Part shown: positions 1-31,591 of the stretch, piece by piece
Numbering within the stretch: position 1 is the stretch's first letter
Layout: the number at the start of each line of letters is the position of its first letter
IMG/VR virus record: IMGVR_UViG_3300021960_000024
Strand: one strand, 5' to 3'
DNA from: an uncultured virus (IMG/VR IMGVR_UViG_3300021960_000024)
Lineage: Duplodnaviria > Heunggongvirae > Uroviricota > Caudoviricetes
Length of the DNA: 64,000 bases
Position numbers and translations under genes: made by a program
The notes under the pieces: generated by a model
Seen by the model: only the letters and a program-made list of their open reading frames with translations
Database searches by the model: none
What the model was told of the DNA's origin: nothing

Positions 1-2
1 GT

Positions 3-143
3 TTAGTAAATTATAAAAAGGGTTTGCAAGTAGACCACGTTGACCGCAATCTAAATAATCTTGCGCCTGAAAATCTGAAGACTTACTGCCCTAATGCACA
101 CAGCGGTAAGACTATGAAGTATGAGGATTATATGCCAAAATGA
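3..143 (+). CDS. 3' end of an HNH endonuclease-like gene (partial)
   Basis: Frame 3 reads LQVDHVDRNLNNLAPENLKTYCPNAHSGKT, an HNH pattern; its stop overlaps the next ATG (ATGA). Confidence 0.65.
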   Translation, partial: LVNYKKGLQVDHVDRNLNNLAPENLKTYCPNAHSGKTMKYEDYMPK

Positions 144-820
144 AAACTCTTGTATTCCAAGTTAATATAAAACCTAACGGAGTCAAAACTTCTGGTAAAA
201 AAAGGTTTGCATACTCCAATTCTCTTTATGGTTTTTCGAATCAAAGAGCTAAAGAGTATGCAGATAAATTTGGTGCAGATTATTTTTGCTTATATAACAC
301 AGATTGGTTAGGAAATGAATATGCACCATGTTATCATACATTGTATGTTTACAAAATGTATGAAAAATATGATAAAATATTATACCTAGATAGTGATGCT
401 GTAATAACAAAGAATTGTCCAAATATTTTTAATTATGATAAATTTTCAGCAGTTTTAGATAATTCAAAACAAACACCATCAGGAAAAGAAAAAAATAAAA
501 GAAAGTTACAAATACACAATCTTCCAGATACACATGATTATTTTTGTAGTGGAGTGATACTGTTTGATAAAAAGTTCTTACAATTAACTGAACAGTATTG
601 GAAAGATGAATTAGATTGTTGGAAAAATATTAAAAATGGTCAACACGACCAATCTGTGTTTAATGTGTTAGTTTCAAAATATTATGGAAAATATAATTTG
701 CTTGATGATGATTGGGGTTCTTGGAGAAAACGGGGCAAATTTATAACTCATTACAGTGGCCCAACACAAACATCAGAATGGACAGAAGAAAAGTTTTTGA
801 AATGGGAAAATAAACTATGA
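140..820 (+). CDS. GT-A fold glycosyltransferase (GT8-like)
   Basis: ILYLDSD DxD motif, YFCSGVILF, HDQSVFN, ITHYSG; AT-rich. Confidence 0.75.
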   Translation: MKTLVFQVNIKPNGVKTSGKKRFAYSNSLYGFSNQRAKEYADKFGADYFCLYNTDWLGNEYAPCYHTLYVYKMYEKYDKILYLDSDAVITKNCPNIFNYDKFSAVLDNSKQTPSGKEKNKRKLQIHNLPDTHDYFCSGVILFDKKFLQLTEQYWKDELDCWKNIKNGQHDQSVFNVLVSKYYGKYNLLDDDWGSWRKRGKFITHYSGPTQTSEWTEEKFLKWENKL

Positions 821-1986
821 AAGTAGCTATTGTTCTAGGACGAGGCCTCGAAGGGTGCGGCGTTACAAAATACACTGTAGAGTTGGAGAGGTGGTTACTC
901 AACAACTCCCATACTCCTATGGTATATGCATCTAAGGATAAAAGGTGGTCTAGGAACGACTCCCATGAGATACAGAATTTGGTTCATGTGCGCTTTGACA
1001 GAGATGATTTTGATGAGGTATATGAGGGCTGTAAATCTTCTGATATAATTATATTCAATTCATTGCCGTCTGTTAATCACAGTAAAAAATGTCAAGATAG
1101 GTTTTCTACACTGTTGGACTTAGGCGTATATAGGGTGTTTATTCAGCATGATCATAACAAGTCTTCACTAAGAAGAAATACATTGCTACAAGATTCTTAT
1201 GAAAAATCAGATATAATATTTGCACACTCCGACACTGGTGATTTTGCAGACATGGTAAATACTCCAAATCTTTTTGATATGAGGAAAATAGATATTCACC
1301 TGATGCAGCCGGGAATATCATTTTCTCACTATGAGGAATATCATAAATCTGTTGAAGATCAAGATATGAAGCATCACAAATGGATAGGTCGGACTGCGAG
1401 ATGGAAAAACTATGACATGATGTTTGACTTCCATAATAAGTATTTAAAAGAATTGGGCCACTTAACCACATTTGAAGGAATAGATAAGAGTCCTATTTTT
1501 ATAGAGTTAAAAAACAGGAATAAGTTTTTTGATGAAGTTGTCTCAGAAATAGACACTGTAGACTTGAAAGATAGATATGGAAAGGATGCGACAGTCTTTG
1601 GTGATTATAACAATAAAGCAATGCTGAATAGGATGTCTAAATGTGGATTTGGCTATCAGCTGTCTTTACTTGAGGACAGATTTATTAAAAAATCCCTAGA
1701 GTTTACTCACTTAGAAATTGTTGCAGTTGGAGCAATACCTGTGTTCAGAAAAGAATACGGGGATATTTGTATTCATCGTTACTATGATAAACCTTTAACA
1801 GAATTAGATAGTGGAACAATATGGCTTTCTAATGACAACATGGAAGAGTGCAGAGATTTGGTGCAAGAGCTGTCTGCTAATGAAGAGCTAAGGAATGAGT
1901 ATAGAGATAAATCATATGATACATATTCTTACTATGACAGCAAATATACTACCCAAGATATGTTTGATAAAATGGAGATGTCATGA
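817..1986 (+). CDS. agt: DNA alpha-glucosyltransferase (T4 AGT-like)
   Basis: RGLEGCGVTK, QHDHNKSSLRRN, WIGRT, RMSKCGFGYQLS, SLEFTHLE and DSGTIW match T4 alpha-glucosyltransferase along the whole length. Confidence 0.9.
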   Translation: MKVAIVLGRGLEGCGVTKYTVELERWLLNNSHTPMVYASKDKRWSRNDSHEIQNLVHVRFDRDDFDEVYEGCKSSDIIIFNSLPSVNHSKKCQDRFSTLLDLGVYRVFIQHDHNKSSLRRNTLLQDSYEKSDIIFAHSDTGDFADMVNTPNLFDMRKIDIHLMQPGISFSHYEEYHKSVEDQDMKHHKWIGRTARWKNYDMMFDFHNKYLKELGHLTTFEGIDKSPIFIELKNRNKFFDEVVSEIDTVDLKDRYGKDATVFGDYNNKAMLNRMSKCGFGYQLSLLEDRFIKKSLEFTHLEIVAVGAIPVFRKEYGDICIHRYYDKPLTELDSGTIWLSNDNMEECRDLVQELSANEELRNEYRDKSYDTYSYYDSKYTTQDMFDKMEMS

Positions 1987-2930
1987 AGCATATAATCGCA
2001 CAGAATGATTATGGTGAGAAAGAGACTTTCGAAAAGTGGAACGGTAAGTTCTATGATGAGTCTGATCTTGATGAGATTATTCATGTAACAGAGGACACTG
2101 TTATCATGCGTCCAGATGCTACACTTGACGGGCCCGGTGTTCCTATTGCTTATGTGGTAACAAACGCATTTCCGAATGATGATATGCGTGATGTTCTCTA
2201 CGGCATCGAAGAATCATCTACCATGCGAGCAAACTGCGCTGGTCCTATTGACCCTGTTGAGATGGCTGCTAAGGGATTGATTGAGGGTGAACACTACAAA
2301 CTTCGATCTCCCAATTCGTACCATGTGAGAGCAAAAAATGGAAAGTGGGGTATGATCGCATATGCCAACGAAATTAATAGTGTAATGATTGGTGCAAAGC
2401 GTGGACGTTTCACAGGAAAAATTAACATATCCAATGAGGAGAGTTGGAAAGCACTGAAACCATTGTGTGTTGATGTTGAACGTGCATTTGAGAAAGCTGC
2501 ACCAGAGATTTACAATAGACAGAAAAGGTTCGCAGAAGAAGCAATCGCACCAGAGCATCGTCATGGTATGATCACCACCCTGAGTGCTAATCGGTACAGT
2601 GCAATGCAGAGTAAAGCCATGGGTGTTCATAGCGATGGGAAGGATGTTGAGTATACAACTATGAGTTGTCATCGACAGGGCGAATACACGGGAGCGTATC
2701 TCTCATTCCCTCGTTGGGGTGTAGGTCTTGATCTCCCAGATAACTGCGTGTGTATTGCAGATTCTAAGAGTTTACACTGTGTTACACCTATTAGTGGTGC
2801 GGGACAGAGGTTCACAACGGTCTGTTATACGGACCTATCTGCAGCCACAATAGGGAATATGGGTAAGTCAGAACGCCTGATTGGCCGGTTTGCGAAAAAA
2901 GAAGTTGGAAGTTTAGAAGACTTTATTTAA
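1983..2930 (+). CDS. TET/JBP-family 2OG-Fe(II) 5-methylpyrimidine dioxygenase
   Basis: HSD (HxD), GAYLSFP, LHCVTPI and RFTTVCY; adjacent to AGT. Confidence 0.8.
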   Translation: MKHIIAQNDYGEKETFEKWNGKFYDESDLDEIIHVTEDTVIMRPDATLDGPGVPIAYVVTNAFPNDDMRDVLYGIEESSTMRANCAGPIDPVEMAAKGLIEGEHYKLRSPNSYHVRAKNGKWGMIAYANEINSVMIGAKRGRFTGKINISNEESWKALKPLCVDVERAFEKAAPEIYNRQKRFAEEAIAPEHRHGMITTLSANRYSAMQSKAMGVHSDGKDVEYTTMSCHRQGEYTGAYLSFPRWGVGLDLPDNCVCIADSKSLHCVTPISGAGQRFTTVCYTDLSAATIGNMGKSERLIGRFAKKEVGSLEDFI

Positions 2931-2963
2931 TTGACACCCATCAAGTTCCATGTTATATAAATA
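2931..2963 (+). promoter_or_regulatory. Overlapping sigma70-like promoter and T4 late promoter
   Basis: TTGACA at 2931; TATAAATA at 2956-2963. Confidence 0.65.
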
Positions 2964-2991
2964 GAATATAACACACACATGGAGCAGTTGA

Positions 2992-4128
2992 ATGTCTAAT
3001 CTCAATCACTATGTACGGCAATTACGCCCCCGTACAGAATCATATACTCCCCATGTTGATAGGATTCAAGACTTATTCATCAATGAAGCATCCTTTAGTC
3101 CTAAAAACTTTCCATCTGATGTGGGAAATAATAAATCTTTTTCTGGGGCTGGTGAAAGAACAACATATGCTCCAACAAATAAATCAACATACAAATATAA
3201 ATCTGGATTTGAAATAGCGAAAAAAACTTCTTTGTATTCTAAAACAGGAAAAGTTATAAAGTCATTAGTTCCTAATGACAGGGTTTATTTTACAATTCCA
3301 GCAACTCTACACAAATCTGATGAATTTGGTGTTCGTGGTAGAAAGACAACCCTTGCTCCAATATCTCTCAAAGGATTTGATAAAAGTGTAGATGGATACG
3401 TTTCAATAAGTGCTGTTATTAAACCTAGTGGTTCTTCTCAAGGAAGAGTTGGGGCTGGATCAAAAACACAAGATATGGTTGCACAGCATGTTATGGAGAT
3501 ATGTCGAAAAAAAGATTTACAATTTTCAAATGATTATAAGATTGCAAAAGCGGGTTCTACAATCCCTGACTTGGTAATGTCAATTGAAAATAAAAGTGTG
3601 CAATTTGAAATAAAAGGTACAAGTAATAGAAAGTCACAAGTTGCTTTTTTTGATAAGTCTGTTAAAAGGTCTGGTCGTAAACCAGAATTGCTTGAAGAAA
3701 TTGCAAATGTATATATTGATACATTAAAGACAAAAGACGGCAGCGTAAAAAAACTTATGTTAAAAGGTGGTTTTCCTAGTACTTTTGTAGGACTTATTGA
3801 TTTTTATAACTCAATAGATTCAAAAATTGGTTTAGCTGGCGATGAAGGTGTAATAAAATCTGGAAAATTACCATCTGATTTTATTACCGATGACACAACA
3901 ATAATGACTAAGATGTATAAAATAATATTGGATCACTTTGAGGAAGGTGGTGATGACTATTTTGTTATTCATAGTAGGTCTGATGATTCTTTTGAAGTAT
4001 ATTTTTTAGATAGAGGAGATAATATATTAAAAATGCCATCATTACCAAAGTTCAAGAGATTTGAGTTGTCAACATATGGGGGTGCTTCGAGTGGTTCTAC
4101 CCGTGTTGGACTTAAAATTAGACTTTAG
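2992..4128 (+). CDS. Hypothetical protein with a possible PD-(D/E)xK nuclease domain
   Basis: PDLVMSIENKSVQFEIKG resembles PD...ExK; late promoter upstream. Confidence 0.45.
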   Translation: MSNLNHYVRQLRPRTESYTPHVDRIQDLFINEASFSPKNFPSDVGNNKSFSGAGERTTYAPTNKSTYKYKSGFEIAKKTSLYSKTGKVIKSLVPNDRVYFTIPATLHKSDEFGVRGRKTTLAPISLKGFDKSVDGYVSISAVIKPSGSSQGRVGAGSKTQDMVAQHVMEICRKKDLQFSNDYKIAKAGSTIPDLVMSIENKSVQFEIKGTSNRKSQVAFFDKSVKRSGRKPELLEEIANVYIDTLKTKDGSVKKLMLKGGFPSTFVGLIDFYNSIDSKIGLAGDEGVIKSGKLPSDFITDDTTIMTKMYKIILDHFEEGGDDYFVIHSRSDDSFEVYFLDRGDNILKMPSLPKFKRFELSTYGGASSGSTRVGLKIRL

Positions 4129-4136
4129 GCTATGAA

Positions 4137-5087
4137 ATGAAAACCTTCAAATCTTTATACGAGGAATTAGATTTCGCACCCACCCACTCATTAAGTTTAT
4201 CAGAACTTATTTTTACTAGGGCAGAAGGTGGATCAGATATGTCAGCCACTTCAGCAAGAAGAGGTGGGCCCGGTTCGCCAGCAAATCATATGTGGCTGCC
4301 TCTATCTGGTTCTATGTTTAAAAGAATATTCCCGAAGGAAGTTAGAGCAACAGTTTTTCATGTAACAAGAATGACTAGTTTTGATCAGTTGTATGAAATT
4401 CAAAACTCAAATCGTTCCATATCTGCATTTACAAATATGGATAGAACACCTATTGTTACAGGTGTACAGGGAGGTAGTGGTCTTGTTATTGAACTGGAAG
4501 GAAACATTCTTGCATCAGCAAAAGAAGACCTTATGTCTATTCCCGAAACATCTGGTAGAAGGATGCTTGGTTTTAATTGGTTCAGAGGTCCGTGGGGTTC
4601 CGATGATGTTGCGAAAATGCAAAAGGGTCTTGAAATACTATTGAAAGTATTAATCAAAAAATATGGAAAGGCCTTTGGTGGAGATGCACCAAAAGGTAAA
4701 GATGATTTTGACAAATGGATGCACATGCATGTGACATATAAAAATTCTAAAGTAAAGAATGCTGGTAGGATAATGCAATCTCTTATAAAGGATTATTTGG
4801 ATGGTGTTGAGAAAGTATTCAAAAAAAATTCCACACAGGTTCAGAATACATTGACTCGTTATATGCAACGCCGCAAAACTGATGATAACTGGGATGAGAT
4901 TGTAATTGATGATTTTGAAATCAAAAAGATATGGATAATAGAGGATGCAGATGAAATGGTGTCTGGTGCTGCTGAAGAGTTTAAATCTAACATAACATCT
5001 ACAAAATTACCAGTTGAGATTATTAATGCCCAGAACATGGAAGCACATGTAAGGGGTGTTGCAATGAAAGCTACAGGTAGGTCATAA
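4137..5087 (+). CDS. Hypothetical protein, possibly capsid-internal
   Basis: N-terminus MKTFKSLYEE resembles the T4 capsid targeting sequence. Confidence 0.55.
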   Translation: MKTFKSLYEELDFAPTHSLSLSELIFTRAEGGSDMSATSARRGGPGSPANHMWLPLSGSMFKRIFPKEVRATVFHVTRMTSFDQLYEIQNSNRSISAFTNMDRTPIVTGVQGGSGLVIELEGNILASAKEDLMSIPETSGRRMLGFNWFRGPWGSDDVAKMQKGLEILLKVLIKKYGKAFGGDAPKGKDDFDKWMHMHVTYKNSKVKNAGRIMQSLIKDYLDGVEKVFKKNSTQVQNTLTRYMQRRKTDDNWDEIVIDDFEIKKIWIIEDADEMVSGAAEEFKSNITSTKLPVEIINAQNMEAHVRGVAMKATGRS

Positions 5088-6691
5088 TGATAACACAATC
5101 AGATTTAAATCAGGTAGAGAAGTTTGCTGATCGGCTGTTCGCAAAGGTTGGTATTGATGTTGAGTTCACTCGACACTTTATGGACAGGGTGAATGATGCT
5201 CGTAATAAGAAAGCTATCACACCTTCTGAACTGACTCGTCTATTCAAGCAGTCTTATTCCAAGTATGGTAAAAAGATAGCACAGCTTGGTCCTGATGCTG
5301 AAGCTGTTATCAATGACATGAAGACGAATATCAATATGCCATTTGTCCTCAACCTCAAAGGAAATGAGTTGGAGTTGGTGGCAAAAACTGTTATGCGTAA
5401 GAAAGATTTCAAGACCTCTGGTCCTAAGTTGTCTTTTGAACAGTTTAGTAATTGTTCACCTTTTGTTCTTTTAGAAGATAAGGGCGGTAAGAACCTTCAC
5501 CTAGAACATCTAGAGGATGAAATCCTTAACTATGGTGTTGATGGTGGTAGAGCTGCACTTGACTTCCTGCGTTCTCTACGAGATATGTTAGCGGGTTCTG
5601 CACGTTCTAGTGTAAACATGACGGTTAAGTGGGACGGTGCGCCAGCAATCTTCGCTGGTGTTGAACCAGAGACAGGTGACTTTTTTGTGGCCAAGAAATC
5701 TGTGTTCAACGTCTCACCCAAATTATACAAGACCACAAAAGAAATTGATGATGATTTATCTGGAGCATTAAATGAAAAGTTTAAAGTTGCACTTAAAGAG
5801 TTTTCTAAGTTGGGTATCAAGGGGGTACTACAGGGTGACCTCATGTTCACTGACGATGTGGAAACAGAGACTATCGATGGCGTCAAGTATTATACTTTTC
5901 AGCCTAACACTATTGTCTATGCTATACCTGTTGATAGCGTATTAGGTAAGACTATCAACAAAGCAAAAGTTGGTATTGTCTGGCACACCACATATACAGG
6001 CGACACCCTACAGGGTATGAAAGCATCATTTGGTGCAGATATTAAGGGGTTAAAAACCCCATCAAGCGTTTGGATGGATGATGCAACCTATAAGGACGCA
6101 TCTGGTAAGGCAACATTTACTGCTAAAGAGACAGAACAAATCACTGCTATACTATCACAAGTTGGTAAAACTTTCAATAAGATCAATGCGAATGGGTTGC
6201 GTAAGTTCCTTACTGTGCAGAACGGTATGACGGGTGCGATTGCTGGTGCATCTCTCAAGACTTACAATAACTCAAAGGTTCGTGCGGGTGAGAAGATTAG
6301 TAATCCTGCCGCACATGCAAAGGGTTATGAGAAGTGGGTGTTTGACTCTATCCAGAAACAGATTGACAAGGTTAAGAGTGACAAGGGTAAGAAGAAATAC
6401 ACTGACATGCAGAAAGAGTATGGCCGTGAAATAAAAAAACACACTCAAAATCTAACACAGATCATCACCTTCCAGAACCTATTGGTTGATGCGAAGATGC
6501 AAATCGTTAATAAACTAAATAGTGTAAAGGGTTTGACCGATACTTTTATTAAGACCTCAAATGGATTTAAGGTGACAAATCCCGAAGGATATGTTGCTAT
6601 TGACAGAATAAGTGGTGGTGCAGTTAAACTGGTGGACCGTATGGAGTTCTCGTTTAACAACTTCACAGCTGTCAAAAATTGGATGAAATAG
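5087..6691 (+). CDS. Conserved phage protein (DUF6267-like) with ligase-type nucleotidyltransferase motifs and an extra N-terminal domain
   Basis: KNLHLEHLED, VKWDGAP (KxDG), QGDLMF, PEGYV, VKLVDR. Confidence 0.6.
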   Translation: MITQSDLNQVEKFADRLFAKVGIDVEFTRHFMDRVNDARNKKAITPSELTRLFKQSYSKYGKKIAQLGPDAEAVINDMKTNINMPFVLNLKGNELELVAKTVMRKKDFKTSGPKLSFEQFSNCSPFVLLEDKGGKNLHLEHLEDEILNYGVDGGRAALDFLRSLRDMLAGSARSSVNMTVKWDGAPAIFAGVEPETGDFFVAKKSVFNVSPKLYKTTKEIDDDLSGALNEKFKVALKEFSKLGIKGVLQGDLMFTDDVETETIDGVKYYTFQPNTIVYAIPVDSVLGKTINKAKVGIVWHTTYTGDTLQGMKASFGADIKGLKTPSSVWMDDATYKDASGKATFTAKETEQITAILSQVGKTFNKINANGLRKFLTVQNGMTGAIAGASLKTYNNSKVRAGEKISNPAAHAKGYEKWVFDSIQKQIDKVKSDKGKKKYTDMQKEYGREIKKHTQNLTQIITFQNLLVDAKMQIVNKLNSVKGLTDTFIKTSNGFKVTNPEGYVAIDRISGGAVKLVDRMEFSFNNFTAVKNWMK

Positions 6692-9600
6692 ATGCGTAGT
6701 TTTAGAGATATCACAGAGGCTAAAGAAACTGTTGTATTTGGATTCGGGCGATTCAATCCAAGCACGATTGGGCATGAGGCCGTTATTGAAAAGATTGCTT
6801 CTGTAGCAAAGGGCAATCCATTCTTCATATATCCTTCACATACTACTGGACCTAAAGACCCCCTAAAGCACTCTTTGAAAATTGCGTGGATGAGGAAGAT
6901 GTTCCCCAAGTACAAGAAGAACATTATTGTAGATAATAAGGCTAAGACTGTCATCAACATTGCTGAGAAACTATACAAGGATGGTTATAAAAATTTAATT
7001 CTTGTGGTGGGAAGCGATAGAGTAAAAGATTTCGATGCCCTATTACAGAGATATAATGATGCACCAGACAAAAAAGGTAATCAGTTATTCAAATTTGATT
7101 CAGTCAAAGTGGTATCTGCTGGAGAGCGTGATCCAGACGCAGATGGCGTTGCCGGGATGTCTGCCAGCAAACTCAGAAAGGCAGCATCAGATGGTAAGTT
7201 TGATGATTTCAAAAAGGGTATCCCCAATACATTGAACGACGCCGATAAGAAGAAATACTATTTTGACGTTCGTAAGGGAATGGGTATTCGTGAAGATCGT
7301 GAAATGGGTGATGACTATGATTCATTGCGTGACGCATACCTCACAGGTAAAATCTGGAACGTGGGTGAAGTTGTAGAGGCAAACGGTGTCAGTGGTGAGG
7401 TTGTTCGTAAGGGTACAAACTATCTCTCATTCGTAGCAGAGGATGGCAAGGTTCATAAGGCATGGTTACATGAGATTGAACTTGATGAAAATGCAGTTTA
7501 TGATAAAGCAAAGTCTGATGGTGCTAAAAAATATAAAGATAGTCTTGGTGGTGAAGAACCTCTGACAGCAGCAAAATCTCCCTTACAGAAATTGAAGGAC
7601 TTTGACAAGTCCAGAGTTGCCGCAGGGAAACCACCCATATTTACAGACAAGAAACCACCTAAGTTTATTCGCATGAAGAAGTCTGGCCAGATGACAATCA
7701 TGAATGTCCCTACTGATGAGATTGATAAATTTGAGAAGAAGGGTTATGAGATCATTGAAGACCTTGTTGGTGTAAAACCAATGAGTGGACCTACAGGACA
7801 AATCTTTGCATTGAAGTCTGAAGAAGTTGAACTTGATGAAGACGCTTCTGTATATAAAAAGACTGCAAGAAAAAATAAAAATGACGTTACATATGCTTTT
7901 GGTAGAACTAAAAAACTAGATGGCCAACCAAAAGAAAAGGGTGGATATTGGGTTTGGAAATTGTCGAAGAATTATGATGGAAAAGTTCGGGGTGGTATTA
8001 GAGACTCATGGGTATATGTTGACAAAGATTTATCTTATTCTGATGCTGTCAAATTAATGAATAAAAAACTTGGACGCAAAGAATTTAAAGAATCAGTTAA
8101 GGGTAAGGATGTTGGATATCCAGATGAATCCGTGAAGATTGGTAAGAAACACTATATCATCTACAAAGGTGGTAGAGAATGGTATGGATATGAAGTAGAC
8201 AAAGAGGGAAACCAGCTTGGAGACTCAGTGTTTGATCCTAAAAAGAGTGAACTGATAAAGATTCTCGCACAAGAAGGTCTTGATGAGCGCAACTACGCTA
8301 AAGAATATGCGAACTACCAAGGAACACCAGAACAGATTGCTCGCCGTTCTTCAAGGAACAAGGCTCGTAGGGCAATGGGTGACAAGGCAGTTAAGGGTAT
8401 GGACGTTGGACATAAAGACAACAACCCAATGAATAATGACCCGAAGAACCTACGCATGGAGAAACCATCTGACAATCGTAGAGAACCACGGTTGCGTGAA
8501 GAAGATGAACTTGATGAGATGGCATGGTATAAAGTAGCACTAGCAAAAATTAGTCAATTGAACCACCCTAAAGATTATGAAAAAATGGTCAAACAATATG
8601 CGACTGATATGAAAAAACCAGAACTAAAAAACAAGACTGCTTCTTATATCGCAGCAAGGATTGCCCAAGAGTATAAGGGTCAGGACGGTAGAAAACTTGT
8701 TCAGTATATCAACAAACTGGTTGATGATGGTAAACTCCCCAAAGAACTCAAGGCAGAATATCAAGAAGAAGAAACAATGCAGACCTTTAGTGATTTCGTT
8801 AAACAGATCAATGAAGTCAAACAGGACAAAGATGTAGATGATAAGGATGGAACACAACCAGCAAAGTACTATGCTGGTGATATGGCCAAGTCTACCAAAT
8901 CCAAGAGGGATGCACACTTCAAAGCAAAGAAGGCTGGTCCTGCTCCCGGCGATGCTTCTGCAAAAACTAAACCATCCACACACACTAAGAAGTTCAAACA
9001 GATGTATGGCGAAGCGTTACCTAAAGATGCAGATCAAGGTGATTACATCGATGATTTCGAGAAGTCAGATGCACCACAGTTTAGGGGTAAGTCTAAAGAG
9101 AAACGCAAGGACATGGCTATCGCTGCATACCTCTCAAAGAATGAGTCTTTCCTAGATAACGTCAGTAGGATGTTGGGTGAGGATGGTCACACTGATGTTG
9201 CGTCTATGAAAAATAAGGTTCAGATTGCTCAAAAAGCATTGATGAAGATGCAAGGTGAACTGACTAAACTTGGTGATGAAGATGATCTACCTACATGGTG
9301 GACAAACAAGGTTGCAACAGCAGTATCTCGTTTGGATGACATGTCTGATTATATTGACACTCAGGTTGAAGATGTGCAACTAGACGAAAAGATTGAAGGT
9401 CTGGTGAAGAAGGCAGATAAGTCTGGTATGCCATACTCTATTCTCAAGAAGGTATATGATCGTGGTATGGCAGCATGGAAAACGGGTCATCGTCCCGGCA
9501 CCACACCACAACAGTGGGCGATGGCGAGGGTCAACTCGTTCGTGACAAAGAGTAGTGGCACTTGGGGTAAAGCAGATAAAGACCTAGCAAAACAGGTTGA

Positions 9601-25069: not shown

Positions 25070-25324
25070 GTGGAAGATATTATTAAAGCGGTTCAAGACG
25101 AAGGTATAACTGTTGTCATGGCTGTTGGTATGGGTTATTTTATATTTTTTATATGGAAGTATGTGACTCAACAAATTTTACCCGCACTCGACAAAGCTAC
25201 GATGACAACTATATCTCTCATTGACAGAGTAAGGATGCTTGATAATGACATGATAAGAATGGACCAGAAAATCAATACGATTCTGGAACTTCGTGACATA
25301 GAAAAGGAGAAGAAGGATGAGTAG
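25070..25324 (+). CDS. Membrane protein resembling the preceding gene
   Basis: TM helix; LIDRVRMLDNDMIRMD resembles ALDNRVKTLNNEIVRLD. Confidence 0.55.
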   Translation: MEDIIKAVQDEGITVVMAVGMGYFIFFIWKYVTQQILPALDKATMTTISLIDRVRMLDNDMIRMDQKINTILELRDIEKEKKDE

Positions 25325-25871
25325 GAACTTTTTCAGTCTAAAAACAGGTCATCATGCTTCTGATGTATTCTTTAAAAATCAGGCAATCTGGCACGATAGT
25401 GATATGCTCAAATCATTCTTGATAGGGGCATTTGTCGGTGCGCTCTTTGCTTTCGGATGTGCATTCCTCTCACCTTCACATGCTGGGGAACTTACTCACA
25501 CATGGAAGTCACCCGCATTTAGTGGTCAGGGATACAGCGCACATGTTTTGACCATTGAGAACCAAGAGTTTTCAAGGTCGCAAGCAATTAGAGAAAAGAA
25601 AGAAGCTGCTGAACGTCAAGCAATACGAGATGCTGCAAATACAAACCTTTCTAAATTTATGAAGAATGTGGAATCAAGAATATATGCACAACTTTCAAAA
25701 CAACTAGTAGATAGTATGTTTGGAGAAGAGGCTTCAACTTCCGGTACAGTTACTTTTGAGGGTACAACAATTAGTTATGTCAAAAGTAGCGAAACCGTAG
25801 ATTTAACGATTGTGGATGCAAATGGTAGTACGACTGTTATCACTGTTCCTGTTGGCGACTTTACTTTCTAG
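25317..25871 (+). CDS. csgF: Curli assembly protein CsgF-like
   Basis: Signal peptide, then ELTHTWKSPAFSG and ESRIYAQLSKQLVDSMFG. Confidence 0.8.
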   Translation: MSRNFFSLKTGHHASDVFFKNQAIWHDSDMLKSFLIGAFVGALFAFGCAFLSPSHAGELTHTWKSPAFSGQGYSAHVLTIENQEFSRSQAIREKKEAAERQAIRDAANTNLSKFMKNVESRIYAQLSKQLVDSMFGEEASTSGTVTFEGTTISYVKSSETVDLTIVDANGSTTVITVPVGDFTF

Positions 25872-26610
25872 TTGTGCGAGCATCCAACCACAGGATGCTC
25901 CTGTACCTAGTACTGTGCCGTTAGTAGATGAACTATACAACATAACACCACCTGAACGTAAGGTGCCGGTTGCGGTGTATAAGTTCAATGACGTAACAGG
26001 ACAAAGAAAATCCAGCTCATCACTTGCATTACTAAGTAGTGCAGTGACACAAGGTGGAGATATATGGTTAATCCAAGCCCTAAAGAAAGCAGGTAAGGGC
26101 GAGTGGTTTCAAGTCATAGAAAGAATGGAACTGGAAAATCTGTTAAAAGAAAGACAGATTATACGAAACACAAGAAAGAACTATGACGGAGATACGGCAG
26201 AAAAGATTAAACCCCTATTGTTTGCGGGAGTATTGCTGACAGGGGGCATAGTTGGGTATGACACCAATACAAGTACAGGTGGTATGGGGGTAAGATATCT
26301 GGGTATTGGTGTATCTGATGAATATCGTAAGGACATGGTAACAGTGGCTTTACGATTAATATCTGTACAGACAGGTGAAGTACTTTTGGCAGTCAGTTCT
26401 CAGAAAACTATTCTGAGTACAAAGTTATCTGCCACAGTGTTTAAATTTTTAGATATGGGAACTAAATTGCTGGAGACTGAAGCAGGGATAACGGACAATG
26501 AGTCCACTACCTACGCTGTGAGAAAAGCAATTGAACAAGCAGTTATTGAAATAATCAAGGAAGGTGAGCAAAAAGAATTATGGAAATTTAAAGAGGAGAA
26601 AATCAAATGA
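25822..26610 (+). CDS. csgG: Curli secretion channel CsgG-like lipoprotein
   Basis: Lipobox LLSSC; VAVYKFNDVTGQRK, SSAVTQG, LENLLKERQIIR, GGIVGYDTN, LRLISVQTGEVL. Confidence 0.92.
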   Translation: MVVRLLSLFLLATLLSSCASIQPQDAPVPSTVPLVDELYNITPPERKVPVAVYKFNDVTGQRKSSSSLALLSSAVTQGGDIWLIQALKKAGKGEWFQVIERMELENLLKERQIIRNTRKNYDGDTAEKIKPLLFAGVLLTGGIVGYDTNTSTGGMGVRYLGIGVSDEYRKDMVTVALRLISVQTGEVLLAVSSQKTILSTKLSATVFKFLDMGTKLLETEAGITDNESTTYAVRKAIEQAVIEIIKEGEQKELWKFKEEKIK

Positions 26611-27290
26611 GAACGAGCATACTTACAATACTCGCTTACTTTGTTATGTGTAGTGTGAGTTATGCGAGCGACGTATACATAACACAGTCTGGTGCGAGCC
26701 TGACTGCAAACATCAATCAAGATGGACAGACCAATAAGTTCGGTGATGATACAACTGATGTTACTCTAACAGGTGACAGCCAGACGTTAGACATTGATCA
26801 GGTTGGTAACACTAACACCATTGCTGCATCTGTTGTCGGTGCAACACAGACATTGACAATAAATCAGACAGGTAATAGTAATACGTCTAACGTATCTGTT
26901 GGTGCTAACTCTGCATCTGATGACAATAGTATTATCCAAACAATCACTGGCAGTTCAAATACAACAACAGTGAACGTGGGTAATAATGCTGCAACCGATG
27001 ATGCTGATATTGATATCACTGCGACAGGCGATAGCAATACTATTACAGTAAATGAAAACAGCACTGCTACAATGGGTGTTGGTGACAAGAAGGTGACGAA
27101 CATCACAGCTATCGGCGGGAGTAATACGATTACATCAACACACACTGGTGCTGCTGATCAAGACACAACTCTTCATCACACTGGTTCATCTAGCACATTT
27201 TCAATTACACAGGGTGGTGCCTATGATGGAGCTGTAGATGTGACAACAGTGGGGTCAAATCACAGTGTTACGATTACTATGGACGATTAG
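26607..27290 (+). CDS. Curlin-like secreted repeat protein
   Basis: Signal peptide; about 23-aa repeats of the form I-x-Q-x-G-x-x-N. Confidence 0.75.
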   Translation: MRTSILTILAYFVMCSVSYASDVYITQSGASLTANINQDGQTNKFGDDTTDVTLTGDSQTLDIDQVGNTNTIAASVVGATQTLTINQTGNSNTSNVSVGANSASDDNSIIQTITGSSNTTTVNVGNNAATDDADIDITATGDSNTITVNENSTATMGVGDKKVTNITAIGGSNTITSTHTGAADQDTTLHHTGSSSTFSITQGGAYDGAVDVTTVGSNHSVTITMDD

Positions 27291-28326
27291 TATCATTCTC
27301 TTTAGTACCAGTGCTTATGGTGCTATTGGAAATGTGGTGAAACACAAAGGGAATGCTTCTGTAGAACGGTCAGGTGAAAACTCTGTTTTGCAAAAGGGTT
27401 CTGATATCGAGTTCAAGGACACGGTGAAAACTGGTAAAGGCGATGTTGGTATCAAGTTTGTTGATGACACCAACGTAGCAGTGAGTGCCCACAGTGCCTT
27501 GGTTATCGATGAGTTTATCTATGACCCTAACTCTAGAAAGGGGTCGAAGTTGGTTATGAATATTGCACTTGGCACGGTGCGTTATGCGAGTGGTAATATT
27601 GCGAAGTTGAATAATCAGAACGTGGACATTCGGACACCAACAGCAAGAATTGGTGTGTTGGGAACGGCGTTCAGTATGACGGTGGATGAGGTTGGTAAGT
27701 CTTTAATTATTCTGTTACCTAATAAAGACGGGACAGTGGGTAAGATATCGGTGGAGACTGATGTAGGACAGGTTATAATGAATCAAGCATTTCAGTCAAC
27801 TGTGGTTGGTACAGGAGAAGCAAAACCATCCAAACCAGTGATACTAGATTTGACACTAGACCAGATTAACAACTTATTGATTATCAAACCACCAAAGAAG
27901 AAACTTATCAAATTGCTTAGTGACTCAAAGGCAAACAAGAATTTACTTGATATTGATTTTCTTGAGTTTGCCGCTTTAGATAAGAATGAGCTAGAGGAAG
28001 ACTTGTTTGAGTTTAACGAGTTGGACATTAACGATTTGGATGTGGAGTTACTAGGTAACATTCTTGACCAGATTGCTCTTGCTTTGGCTCAGTCAGAGTT
28101 GATAGATGGTAGGACAAGTGGATTTAATAAGTCAACACAAGTTAATACACTGGTAGACGGAAACAGCACACGAATCATACGAAGGGTAGGAAACAATACA
28201 ATAGAACTAGACTTGATAAACGACTATGGATATACAATCAACATTACACAGGGTACACCCGTGCCGGAGATAACAACAAGAGATGAAGACGCTTCTAATA
28301 TCATTACTATTACTCAGTCTGACTAA
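27265..28326 (+). CDS. Secreted FecR-domain protein
   Basis: Signal peptide; DTVKTG, IKFVDDT, IRTPTARIGVLGTAF. Confidence 0.8.
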   Translation: MLRLLWTISIILFSTSAYGAIGNVVKHKGNASVERSGENSVLQKGSDIEFKDTVKTGKGDVGIKFVDDTNVAVSAHSALVIDEFIYDPNSRKGSKLVMNIALGTVRYASGNIAKLNNQNVDIRTPTARIGVLGTAFSMTVDEVGKSLIILLPNKDGTVGKISVETDVGQVIMNQAFQSTVVGTGEAKPSKPVILDLTLDQINNLLIIKPPKKKLIKLLSDSKANKNLLDIDFLEFAALDKNELEEDLFEFNELDINDLDVELLGNILDQIALALAQSELIDGRTSGFNKSTQVNTLVDGNSTRIIRRVGNNTIELDLINDYGYTINITQGTPVPEITTRDEDASNIITITQSD

Positions 28327-29068
28327 CATTGCTTTTGCAGGCAATTCAGTTATAATCAATCAAGTTACCACTGGTAATTCGAATAGTATCACTGTGGATG
28401 TAGATGGAAATGATAATGAAATTAATATGAGTCATGGCGGTGGAAACAATACCATCAACATAACACAAGAGGGTAAAGACGGTTACGTTGGATATACTTC
28501 TGCTTGGGGCTCTGGTGCATCATGGGGTGGTGACCTCGACGGCGACAGTAATTCTCTATTGGTAAAACAATTGTGCAATCAATCAACCTGTGGTGGAGAC
28601 AGGTTTGAATTTCACATAAAGGGCGATAGTAATGATGTTGAGTTTTATCAGGGATATACCGTGACAGCTGGCGGTGTTGCTTCGTCTGATACAGTAGAAC
28701 ATGGTGGTCATTCTATAATACTTGATATTCACGGGTCAAGCAATACATTTTTAGGAAGTCAAAGGTCAAATAACTCTGGACATGAACATAGCATGGTGAC
28801 CTATATATACGGAGATAGCAACGATATTTACATGCGACAAGATAGTAACGTGAGTAAAACAATGAACTTGACTGTGAATAACGATACTAATAATATTGAT
28901 ATGGTACAAACTGGTAATGCTGCACACAGTGCTACAGTAACAGTTTCGGGGTCTTACTCAACAACTCTAGACCTAAAACAACAGGGCGGCACAGCACAAT
29001 CGTATAGTCTATCGCAAAGTTGTGCGACAGTGGGGGGATGCAGTGTAAGCGTTACACAAGGGAATTGA
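28283..29068 (+). CDS. Second curlin-like secreted repeat protein
   Basis: Signal peptide; N/G/Q-rich repeats; C-terminal CATVGGCSVSVTQ. Confidence 0.7.
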   Translation: MKTLLISLLLLSLTNIAFAGNSVIINQVTTGNSNSITVDVDGNDNEINMSHGGGNNTINITQEGKDGYVGYTSAWGSGASWGGDLDGDSNSLLVKQLCNQSTCGGDRFEFHIKGDSNDVEFYQGYTVTAGGVASSDTVEHGGHSIILDIHGSSNTFLGSQRSNNSGHEHSMVTYIYGDSNDIYMRQDSNVSKTMNLTVNNDTNNIDMVQTGNAAHSATVTVSGSYSTTLDLKQQGGTAQSYSLSQSCATVGGCSVSVTQGN

Positions 29069-29069
29069 A

Positions 29070-29543
29070 ATGAAAACATTTATTGAGTTTGGCGCCCCAT
29101 GTAATATGAGAGGGTTAGAAACTATCCCATATAGTATTACAAAAGCGAAAAAAGAAGGTTATAGAACAATTGCAATAGACTGTAAGAGCCGAGATTTTCA
29201 TTTCACACCAGAATATATTAAAGTTGTAGACAAAACATATTATAATTATTGGAGTGATGACATAGATATTCCTTTAGCAGATAAATGGATTTCATATGCT
29301 TCACTTGAACATTGTCCTAAAGAAAGAGTTTTAAAAGAGGTTGAAGGTATTGCAAAAAAAGTTAAAGGCAGTGGGGAATTGTCAATTGACTTATCACAAC
29401 ATGTCCACGGGCCGTGGACATACCTAAATAATATACAAACATCTGAATGGATAGATATTATGGATAATTTTTTTATATACATATTTGAAGAAGATTTAGA
29501 CGATGAGATGATATATTTTAGAAATTGTGTGGCGGCGCTATGA
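29070..29543 (+). CDS. Possible SAM-dependent methyltransferase-like protein (AT-rich insert)
   Basis: IEFGA, IAID, SLEH; AT-richer than its neighbours. Confidence 0.4.
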   Translation: MKTFIEFGAPCNMRGLETIPYSITKAKKEGYRTIAIDCKSRDFHFTPEYIKVVDKTYYNYWSDDIDIPLADKWISYASLEHCPKERVLKEVEGIAKKVKGSGELSIDLSQHVHGPWTYLNNIQTSEWIDIMDNFFIYIFEEDLDDEMIYFRNCVAAL

Positions 29544-31591
29544 AAAAGTGGATTATATCATTATCAGTGATTTTAGTATTATGTGGATTGCGTTTTGCAG
29601 ACCCGTGGTTTTTGGACATGGTGCGACTCAAAGCACTAGACCAACACCAACGTAATCAGGAGTCTCTGACTCTCTCTAACCTTGCTACGGTAGAGATCAA
29701 TAATCAAACAATCAGAAAACTAGGTCAGTGGCCGTGGGATCGAAACAGGGTTGCAAACAAAATTATAGAACTCTATCAGGCTGGTGCCTCTATCGTGGTT
29801 GTCCCTATTCTATTTGCAGACCCAGACAGATTTGGTAAAGATGATGCACTTGCCAGAATACTCAAAAAGACTCCTACGGTTATAGGACAGATACCCAGCA
29901 ACGACAAGAGTAACACTGGTGTGGTTCGTGGTGTTGCAACTGTTGGAGAAGACTGGCAACCGTGGGTATACAGTTACCCCGGCGTGGTTGGTCCTATTCC
30001 AGAACTGGCAAAGAGTGCCAATGCGGTTGGTATGATGGTAATCGCACCAGAGAAAGATGGTGTGGTTCGTCGTATGCCTTTGGTTGTTGCAGTGGGCGGG
30101 AAGTTGTATCCATCTATCAGTATGGAAATCCTACGCATGGCTGCGGGGGATATATCGTTTCAGATGAAGACAGGTATTGCTGGTGTGGAGAAACTACGCA
30201 TACCCAAATACAAAATGATTGACACAGATGCTAATGGTAATATCTGGTTGGACTTCAAATGGAAGACACCAGTGTATGCATTACATGAGAAATTACCAGA
30301 CCTCACAGGTAAGATCGTTATACTGAGTATGACTGCTTCTGGTCTAGAAAGTCCCGTAGCAACCCCTGTGGGGGTCATACAGTCGCATAATCTTATAGGT
30401 GCATCACTTGCTACCATGATGACAGGACGCAATATAACCAGACCATTTTGGACTGACCTTGCTGAACTTGCAGTCAGTGGAGTGGGTGCATTGATCTTAG
30501 CATCAGTGGTTCTCACACTCGCATGGTATTTTGGGGCAGTATTACTACCCATTTTTCTTGTTGGATCGTTCTACGGGTCGTCCTACCTCTTTACAGAGTA
30601 CAGTTATCTAGTGGATTGGTCATATCCCGTCCTTACTATGTTTGTGGTCTGGGCCATTGCTGCGTTCTTACGGTTCATGGAAGAATATAAGGAGAAGATG
30701 GAGATCAAGAAACAGTTCGCAGGGTATGCATCACCTACAGTTGTGCGTATGCTACAGGAGAACCCTTCTCTTATTAAAGATGGTATGAAGAAGGAGATCA
30801 GCATTTGCTTCTCTGACCTTCGTGGGTTCACACCGTTGGGTGAGAGTTTTGGTGATGATGTCAAGGGTCTTACTGAAATCATGAATGGGTATATGGATGC
30901 AATCACACAACCTATTTTAGATTCAAATGGCATGGTGATCAAATATATCGGTGATGCGAGTATGCATATTCATAATGCACCTATAGATGACCCAGACCAT
31001 CCAAGGAGCGCAGTCAAAACTGGACTACAGATGTTAGATGCAGTAGTAAAGTTTAACGACAAGATCGTTGCAGAAGGTAAACCACCTATAGGAATGGGTG
31101 CGGGTATCAACACCGGCCTTGGTTATCTTGGAGAGATGGGTTCTACTATGCGACACAGCTACGATGTTCTAGGAGATGCAGTATCGACTGCTGCTAGGAT
31201 TGAGAGCAAGTGTAAGGAATATGGTTGTCTGCTGTTAGTAGGCGAATCCACATATGACTTGACTAAGAATGACTTCTTCTATCTCAAGGTTGATGAACTG
31301 GCAGTGAAGGGTAAGACCATCGGTATTCGTATCTACACCGTCCTGAGTGAAATGGATTGGATGATGAAGAATACCAATTGGGGTATGGCAGAAAACCAGC
31401 ATGAAAGAATGCACGAGTATTATAGCAATCAACAATTTGACCATGCCATTCGTCTATGCAATGATCTGATGAATGAATTTGATGGTAAAATGAGAAACTA
31501 CTATACTATGTGGATAGAAAGGTGTGAGTTCATGAAGACCCAGCCACTAGACAAAGATTGGAACGGTGTGTTCATAGCCACAACTAAATAA
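29540..31591 (+). CDS. CHASE2-domain membrane class III adenylate cyclase
   Basis: GQWPWDR, ILFADPDR, DGVVRRMP (CHASE2); three TM helices; FSDLRGFT, KYIGDA, GINTG, YDVLGDAV, VKGK. Confidence 0.92.
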   Translation: MKKWIISLSVILVLCGLRFADPWFLDMVRLKALDQHQRNQESLTLSNLATVEINNQTIRKLGQWPWDRNRVANKIIELYQAGASIVVVPILFADPDRFGKDDALARILKKTPTVIGQIPSNDKSNTGVVRGVATVGEDWQPWVYSYPGVVGPIPELAKSANAVGMMVIAPEKDGVVRRMPLVVAVGGKLYPSISMEILRMAAGDISFQMKTGIAGVEKLRIPKYKMIDTDANGNIWLDFKWKTPVYALHEKLPDLTGKIVILSMTASGLESPVATPVGVIQSHNLIGASLATMMTGRNITRPFWTDLAELAVSGVGALILASVVLTLAWYFGAVLLPIFLVGSFYGSSYLFTEYSYLVDWSYPVLTMFVVWAIAAFLRFMEEYKEKMEIKKQFAGYASPTVVRMLQENPSLIKDGMKKEISICFSDLRGFTPLGESFGDDVKGLTEIMNGYMDAITQPILDSNGMVIKYIGDASMHIHNAPIDDPDHPRSAVKTGLQMLDAVVKFNDKIVAEGKPPIGMGAGINTGLGYLGEMGSTMRHSYDVLGDAVSTAARIESKCKEYGCLLLVGESTYDLTKNDFFYLKVDELAVKGKTIGIRIYTVLSEMDWMMKNTNWGMAENQHERMHEYYSNQQFDHAIRLCNDLMNEFDGKMRNYYTMWIERCEFMKTQPLDKDWNGVFIATTK

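Follow-up and report, generated by a model that had tools for sequence, protein, structure and literature searches.

Tailed phages are known to place sugars on 5-hydroxymethylcytosine (5hmC) by routes that differ in the origin of the hydroxymethyl group. In T2, T4 and T6 a deoxycytidine monophosphate (dCMP) hydroxymethylase replaces all C, and in T2 and T6 the α-glucosyltransferase is followed by the β-glucosyl-HMC-α-glucosyltransferase TAGT, which extends α-glucosyl-hmC (α-Glc-hmC) to gentiobiosyl-hmC (PMC13216743). A second class, published by Burke in 2021 (PMC8256090) and Pyle in 2023 (10.1101/2023.12.21.572611), relies on a C5-cytosine methyltransferase (C5-MTase) and a TET-type dioxygenase. 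Burke contigs 14, 43 and 87 encode these two enzymes, the TET with an HxD..H..R motif, and two successive glycosyltransferases (GTs), GT-I and GT-II, with the GT8-like one first in gene order; in subclass I of Pyle, two GTs lie next to an MTase and a 5-methylpyrimidine dioxygenase (5mYOX), the upstream one being GT8-like. Here we describe a gene cluster at the start of a 64,000-nucleotide stretch from an uncultured virus (IMG/VR IMGVR_UViG_3300021960_000024; the whole stretch is called the window below) that encodes a GT8-family protein, a relative of the T4 DNA α-glucosyltransferase (AGT) and a TET/JBP-family dioxygenase. The pathway class is already published; the enzyme combination is new.

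The best explanation of this cluster, and on sequence grounds a reasonably probable one, is a four-step, sequence-limited modification of cytosine that would protect the phage DNA. An upstream C5-MTase would methylate cytosines, presumably with the GpC[C/T] specificity of Burke clade II, and the dioxygenase would oxidise 5-methylcytosine (5mC), its presumed substrate, to 5hmC. AGT, judged by orthology, would then attach an α-linked glucose as T4 AGT does, and the GT8 protein would attach a second sugar, most likely glucose (Glc) or N-acetylglucosamine (GlcNAc). TET, and probably AGT, may dock on the sliding clamp gp45 through a polymerase-type tail or loop, so that newly copied phage DNA is modified. 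The likely purpose would be escape from restriction, with the sugar cap answering defences that read α-Glc-hmC (Brig1, BapA). Taken separately, the 5hmC route is very likely and we place equally strong confidence in α-glucose on 5hmC by AGT; the assignment of GT8 as the second-sugar enzyme is likely, and so, to the same degree, is clamp docking.

Like T2 and T6, the locus would pair an AGT orthologue with an extender, and its close relatives have exactly AGT and TAGT. Unlike in the T-even phages, however, 5hmC would arise from MTase and TET at selected DNA sites, and the extender would be a GT8 protein. In Pyle subclass I the first-sugar enzyme is a GT-A protein giving β-Glc or GlcNAc, whereas here it would be a GT-B AGT orthologue giving the α-linkage; all GT-B enzymes of that study fall in subclass III, and those tested (GT53, GT66 and GT94) resemble T4 β-glucosyltransferase only at E 1e-5 to 1e-7 (10.1101/2023.12.21.572611). 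Gene order also departs from the Burke and Pyle clusters, in that TET follows the GTs and a helicase-HNH gene intervenes. No report of AGT and TET together was found in the literature searched, which held few subscription papers and whose scope left out the Burke and Pyle supplements, the Pyle figures and tables and Iyer et al. 2013. The terms 'AGT' and 'alpha-glucosyltransferase' are absent from the main text of Pyle, and the supplements of O'Toole 2026, as far as readable, do not contain PF11440.

The three genes at 140-2930 (Table 1) are real, and the GT8/AGT and AGT/TET pairs are coupled by ATGA overlaps at 817-820 and 1983-1986, as an earlier note on this DNA had described. Its family calls are borne out by the Pfam matches given below, that of TET lying under the cut-off. 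The note overlooked the helicase-HNH gene, coupled to GT8 by a further ATGA at 140-143, and the C-terminal tail of TET; its proposed route via 5hmC to a glucosylated and possibly diglycosylated base fits the sequence tests run, without mentioning that this pathway class, disaccharide products included, had been published. It had also placed the C5-MTase outside the window and guessed that it lies just upstream. Indeed, neither the open reading frame (ORF) list nor a Pfam scan of 34 window ORFs contains one, and a related contig, L079, which matches window 1-7983 at 100% identity before reaching 5.2 kb further upstream, supplies it: a 402-residue PF00145 protein (L079:2271-3479, E 3.4e-52), 2914 to 1706 bases before window base 1. 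The gene order in L079 is family-B DNA polymerase, C5-MTase, helicase-HNH, GT8, AGT, TET. A further contig, L190, agrees with the L079 region at 100% over 7007 bases and likewise has the C5-MTase and the polymerase upstream; the MTase is intact in both, with the SPPC (catalytic Pro-Cys) and ENV motifs kept. The GT8-AGT junction is also spanned by a contig from run X8, which belongs to a separate study; the two sequences differ at 3 of 1619 bases. The polymerase gene (L079:1-2274) overlaps the MTase start, the upstream-polymerase arrangement of Burke clade II/B, and members of that clade with this order make 5hmC in E. coli (PMC8256090). C5-MTase and TET run parallel with three genes between them, within the Burke limit of five.

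In TET, H216-x-D218, H265 and R276-x3-V280-x-Y282 are invariant in 7/7 aligned sequences, so that the features by which Burke recognises a TET (HxD..H, the 2-oxoglutarate-binding Arg and a Val/Tyr pocket) are all found; the V280/Y282 spacing is that given for hTET2 V1900/Y1902, residues also named for phage TETs (PMC8256090). From profile and motifs, which also provide the fold, we infer a TET/JBP-family Fe(II)/2-oxoglutarate 5-methylpyrimidine dioxygenase that would convert 5mC to 5hmC. Among 76 TET loci, a redundant set with many incomplete contigs, an MTase is present in 54, a P-loop kinase in 15, TAGT in 14 and AGT in 12. One of them (L043:1552-3603) carries a natural C5-MTase-TET fusion of 683 residues, the TET part being 79% identical to the window TET. 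No TET relatives were found in GTDB genome contigs. Among cultured phages, Melnitz (EXVC044M, MZ577097) has in its genes 4-6 polymerase, C5-MTase (75% identical) and TET (56-58%) in the same order; gene 6 (L084:5208-6194) is an unannotated TET/JBP gene, listed as hypothetical, and 'dioxygenase' does not occur in the accessible text of the Melnitz paper (PMC9004378). Unlike the window, Melnitz is absent by organism name among the AGT matches listed, and its genes after TET are unassigned or kinase-like.

AGT matches PF11440 over nearly the whole profile (positions 1-353 of 355; E 1.7e-67, 228.5 bits vs a cut-off of 25), the solved T4 AGT structure 1xv5 over residues 1-384 (E 5.7e-77) and phrog_2888 (E 9.4e-84). 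It is 37% identical to T4 a-gt, and RGxEGCGVTK, QHDH, WxGRT and LExTH are common to both, which points to an orthologue of the T4 enzyme with the GT-B fold, presumably acting as first-sugar enzyme on 5hmC. Of 265 viral and 345 metagenome matches, the best 80 each were kept as relatives; they represent 159 loci, which fall into 70 clusters at 95%. Fourteen clusters are close, with at least 53% identity to the window AGT, and the other 56 are distant. TET accompanies 10/14 close and 0/56 distant clusters, whereas a thymidylate-synthase-type gene accompanies 0/14 and 43/56, respectively. Because the close group was chosen by identity to the query, it is this split in neighbourhood that counts as the independent evidence. 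A quick tree was built from 48 of 72 rows, covering 32 of the 56 distant clusters. In it the 14 close clusters form one side of a branch (Shimodaira-Hasegawa-like approximate likelihood ratio test, SH-aLRT, 99) that lies within the thymidylate-synthase-linked clusters; T4 and Cronus lie across the midpoint root. The simplest reading would be a single transfer of AGT from a nucleotide-level system to the MTase/TET route. The distant clusters hold an oddity of their own: 54/56 carry a C5-methyltransferase-like gene, mostly directly 3' of AGT, together with a dCMP-hydroxymethylase-type gene and without TET. An example is the divergent gene at L083:2185-3375 (PF00145 E 1.1e-16, motif CPCAGLS), and 59/63 of these proteins have a clamp-type tail. 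Such a gene is odd where the phage should replace C by hmC; residual C, or hmC, might be its target.

GT8 is a retaining family, and PF01501 (Glyco_transf_8) matches the window protein above its cut-off (E 3.5e-9), with D84-x-D86 and H169-D170-Q171 invariant in 6/6 aligned sequences. The predicted model has a mean local confidence (pLDDT) of 68, and its top Foldseek matches are LgtC at 2.0e-7 and, at 4.7e-7, the capsid glycosyltransferase of PBCV-1, with GlyE also found. The DNA-active second-sugar enzymes GT14-I and GT43-I are reported to give the same fold matches (10.1101/2023.12.21.572611) and accept α-Glc-hmC (PMC8256090). We therefore infer a GT-A glycosyltransferase in the GT-I position, adding a second sugar. 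This role is suggested because GT8-like enzymes are demonstrated second-sugar transferases of the C5-MT/TET pathway class (PMC8256090; 10.1101/2023.12.21.572611) and because GT8 is exchanged for TAGT. L079, with GT8, and L058, with TAGT, are 94% identical as far as the stop of the helicase gene and 98% identical again from where AGT begins, and unmatched between; L122 and L120 show a second such exchange, with flanks of 88% before and 94% after. The TAGT that replaces GT8 belongs to the same family as the T6 second-sugar enzyme (PF20691). All six GT8 loci examined have an MTase, and in all of them GT8 lies upstream of AGT, TAGT or an unassigned GT-like gene. When the close-AGT loci are merged into 36 groups, AGT is preceded by TAGT in 11, by GT8 in 6, by helicase-HNH in 5, by another gene in 8 and by TET in 1, the contig being incomplete in 5; with no GT in this slot in 14/36 groups, the second-sugar cap is optional. 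Two GT8 cassettes (L092:3690-5085 and L093:3459-6080) also hold extra small methyltransferases and an unassigned GT-like gene of 307 residues, which suggests methylated sugars on DNA.

The C-terminus of TET ends in the same pattern as that of the polymerase, and it is through epitopes of this kind that T4 gp43, gp55 and gp33 bind gp45 (PMC2988020). Like these, their RB69 counterparts and the motif of T4 ligase (PMC6212786), it is a short motif of hydrophobic and acidic character, C-terminal or in a loop; unlike in the known gp45 ligands, it sits on a base-modifying dioxygenase, where binding is predicted only. Scored in the last 14 residues, with a pattern written after the tails had been seen and in relatives that are not independent, it occurs in 54/57 distinct TETs and 49/57 polymerases, as opposed to 6/944 other proteins, and in 9/21 TAGTs and 1/109 AGTs. 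Among the 91 window ORFs of at least 100 residues, TET alone has it. For AGT, the variable loop may be the clamp site: a similar motif is present in 50/72 AGTs, as opposed to a mean of 7.9 and at most 18 when the loops are shuffled, and gp45 co-purifies with the T4 enzyme (PMC13216743). A predicted complex of TET residues 283-317 with gp45, both from contig L025, whose TET is 83% identical to that of the window, scores 0.74, the best of 3 controls scoring 0.02. At least 97% of the contacts recur between runs, partner pLDDT is at least 50, and the interface centres on Leu312, Phe315 and Phe316. The score mark used is reached by 116/157 solved and 2/215 mismatched pairs, which is a rough guide since the alignments used here were our own. 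In the same literature, no mention of a phage TET with a clamp tail was found.

Table 1 Features of the modification cluster at the start of the window
Feature	Position	Strand	Description
Helicase-HNH gene, 3' end (HNH part)	1-143	+	Reading frame entering from base 1
GT8 gene	140-820	+	226-residue ORF
AGT gene	817-1986	+	389-residue ORF
N-L-F-D in variable AGT loop	1267-1278	+	Candidate internal clamp-binding motif, aligned with S-L-F-D-D of T4 AGT
TET/JBP dioxygenase gene	1983-2930	+	315-residue ORF
GSLEDFI, TET C-terminus	2907-2927	+	Candidate gp45 sliding-clamp-binding tail, same pattern as polymerase C-terminus GTLEDFFG

Several points weigh against the four-step reading with clamp docking. 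The Tet_JBP match of TET (PF12851, E 4.1e-7) reaches 29.8 bits, below the cut-off of 34.9 that relatives in the same alignment exceed (L125 44.2, L025 35.4 and Melnitz 44.4 bits). In contig L182 a single change in 8200 bases (within L182:3033-3049) introduces a stop into the ENV motif of the MTase, which is either an assembly error or a rare variant. Across 5mYOX pathways at large, a C5-MT is reported in only 6%, and most are inferred to make 5-hydroxymethyluracil (5hmU; O'Toole et al., PMC13229309). Genome composition shows no specific GpC methylation footprint, and GT8 is dispensable in kin. The tail pattern, besides its wording after the fact, is found in 0/6 GT8 proteins and 0/54 clade-II MTases, so that clamp docking would account for some steps of the pathway and not for all. 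In T4 the share of glucosylation by AGT is set by promoter strength, not clamp binding (PMC13216743). Finally, the complex was predicted with the L025 clamp and not the window's own, and its score may be owed to the solved RB69 clamp-peptide structure; it shows likeness, not binding.

Four other explanations share roughly a third of the probability between them. The two GTs could be parallel first-sugar enzymes that share 5hmC sites and give mixed monosaccharides, like the α- and β-glucosyltransferases of T4, which itself has two parallel enzymes (PMC13216743). TAGT, the replacement of GT8, also occurs with TET and without AGT, presumably as first-sugar enzyme (9 rows). Yet a branch separates all 10 TAGTs that precede AGT from these 9 solitary ones (SH-aLRT 94, with a long-branch warning), GT8 is never the sole GT in its loci (6/6), and the published GT8-like GT-I enzymes work on glycosylated hmC (PMC8256090; 10.1101/2023.12.21.572611), which together make parallel action unlikely. 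It is also unlikely that GT8 is not a DNA enzyme and modifies a capsid protein or host surface glycan from within a hypervariable locus, leaving α-Glc-hmC as the sole DNA product. The fold matches to LgtC, the PBCV-1 capsid enzyme and GlyE would suit such a target, as would the missing clamp tail and the many close AGT loci without GT8; however, the DNA-active GT14-I and GT43-I gave the same matches (10.1101/2023.12.21.572611), all six GT8 loci are MTase cassettes, and GT8 is swapped gene for gene with TAGT.

The remaining two concern the origin of the hydroxymethylated base. Phage dioxygenases that oxidise thymine exist and are inferred to be the majority (PMC13229309), and the helicase-HNH gene separates MTase and TET here; AGT might then make α-glucosyl-5hmU, the anomer of base J, next to an unrelated C5-MTase. 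We consider this improbable: the MTase found in 54/76 TET loci often adjoins TET and is fused to it in L043, no C5-MT lies next to the predicted T-dioxygenase cluster, four motifs of the present TET/MTase family are absent from the accessible supplements of the same paper (PMC13229309), and T4 β-glucosyltransferase glucosylates duplex 5hmU only if it is mispaired with G (PMC4111573). Very improbable, lastly, is that AGT uses 5hmC made at the nucleotide level, as in T4, by a dCMP hydroxymethylase encoded elsewhere in the genome. About 69 kb of the phage genome are covered, and such a gene accompanies 43/56 distant AGT clusters; against this, no ThyA-type dCMP hydroxymethylase is found in the 14 close AGT clusters, within the fetched flanks, or in the nearest record, G001 (48.6 kb, 33% complete), which begins at window base 1 and so has no sequence upstream of it. 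PF00303 is unmatched in G001, Melnitz and pelagiphage Mosig, and the window thymidylate synthase is ThyX by Pfam.

Composition was analysed over window 1-64000 plus L079:1-5184 for restriction-site avoidance. C-containing 6-bp palindromes without GCY are avoided (368 vs 732 expected, 24/44 absent, p 0.001), whereas those with GCY are not (75 seen vs 67 expected), which is consistent with protection of only part of the cytosines. For GCY, three cyanophages have a ratio of 0.24-0.37, as against 0.95 for Melnitz and 1.11 for the TET loci when pooled; Mosig, however, which has no C5-MTase/TET, reaches 0.96, so the sparing of GCY is no proof of GpC[C/T] specificity. AT-only palindromes are not avoided; CGCG is absent (0 vs 42 expected in shuffles), and CCWGG occurs 4 times vs about 60. 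GCC and GCT are low in the window (0.81 and 0.80). This was rejected as evidence for a deamination footprint of GpC[C/T] methylation: under codon control the values are -0.2 on the sense strand (z -1.3) and -1.26 on the antisense strand (z -7.4), and MTase-free cyanophages give -1.2 to -1.6 and -0.5 to -1.2, respectively.

The helicase-HNH gene between C5-MTase and GT8 (L079:3540-5327, 595 residues) matches PF04851 (ResIII) at E 4.1e-8 and HNH_3 at E 0.0044, belongs to a ResIII+HNH Atlas cluster (0.96), and is a variable, passenger-like part of the cassette. Among the MTase, TET and GT genes of L002-L082, a hypervariable slot holds either ResIII helicase-HNH genes or genes of 330-600 residues without a family match, possibly mobile or host-DNA-cutting nucleases. 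Cutting of CGCG by helicase-HNH was considered and rejected: the stretches of Melnitz and Mosig likewise have no CGCG, and the relatives L004 and L006, which have the helicase-HNH, contain it. The helicase/TAGT stretch has no DNA match in cultured phages, and PADLOC gave no match for GT8, AGT, TET or helicase-HNH.

By its sequence the phage is an uncultured marine T4-like (Melnitz-like) myophage: the nearest cultured relative of the window gp32 is that of the OM43 phage Melnitz (66%), followed by cyanophages and Mosig (58%). Immediately past the TET stop, before a 378-residue ORF at 2992, lies TATAAATA (2956-2963), which we take to be the T4 late-promoter consensus; a promoter scan returned 18 sites vs 18.5 in shuffles, which offers nothing usable. 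Two RNA libraries contain the stretch, but their contig depth tracks the DNA run of the same study and gives no evidence of transcription. A 1090-residue ORF at window 6692-9964 matches the major capsid protein Gp23 over residues 354-392 (E 1.3e-5) and has a DUF5824 end. Further on, window 25317-31591 encodes the curli-pore proteins CsgF and CsgG. After these come a FecR-domain gene, a pair of low-complexity genes that have no Pfam match and resemble curlins only on visual inspection, and the gene of a CHASE2 adenylate/guanylate cyclase; Melnitz is likewise reported to have csgF/csgG, without csgA/B (PMC9004378).

Going beyond the four-step reading, we tentatively suggest a wider one, which is possible but not the likelier course of events: one AGT lineage may have left the T-even nucleotide-level system and been grafted onto MTase/TET, with fork-coupled, clamp-confined modification, and GT8 would cap α-Glc-hmC with a probably α-linked second sugar to give a disaccharide unlike the gentiobiose of T2/T6, the cap being swapped between GT8, TAGT and nothing as an answer in an arms race. 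If the proposed pathway is true, it would unite the T-even α-glucosyltransferase and the TET route, usually treated apart, and would predict, at selected sites, α-Glc-hmC and a new disaccharide in a group of marine phages that is widespread. The rationale of post-replicative hypermodification has been called a mystery (O'Toole et al., PMC13229309); clamp docking would explain how phage rather than host DNA is chosen at the polymer level, and how modification keeps pace with replication. The swaps of the cap gene form natural near-isogenic pairs that bear on glycan escape from α-Glc-specific defences, and BapA is reported to be unable to strip gentiobiosyl-hmC (10.64898/2026.02.25.707755). Since cultured Melnitz holds the MTase-TET pair, the first two steps and the clamp idea are accessible on virion DNA.

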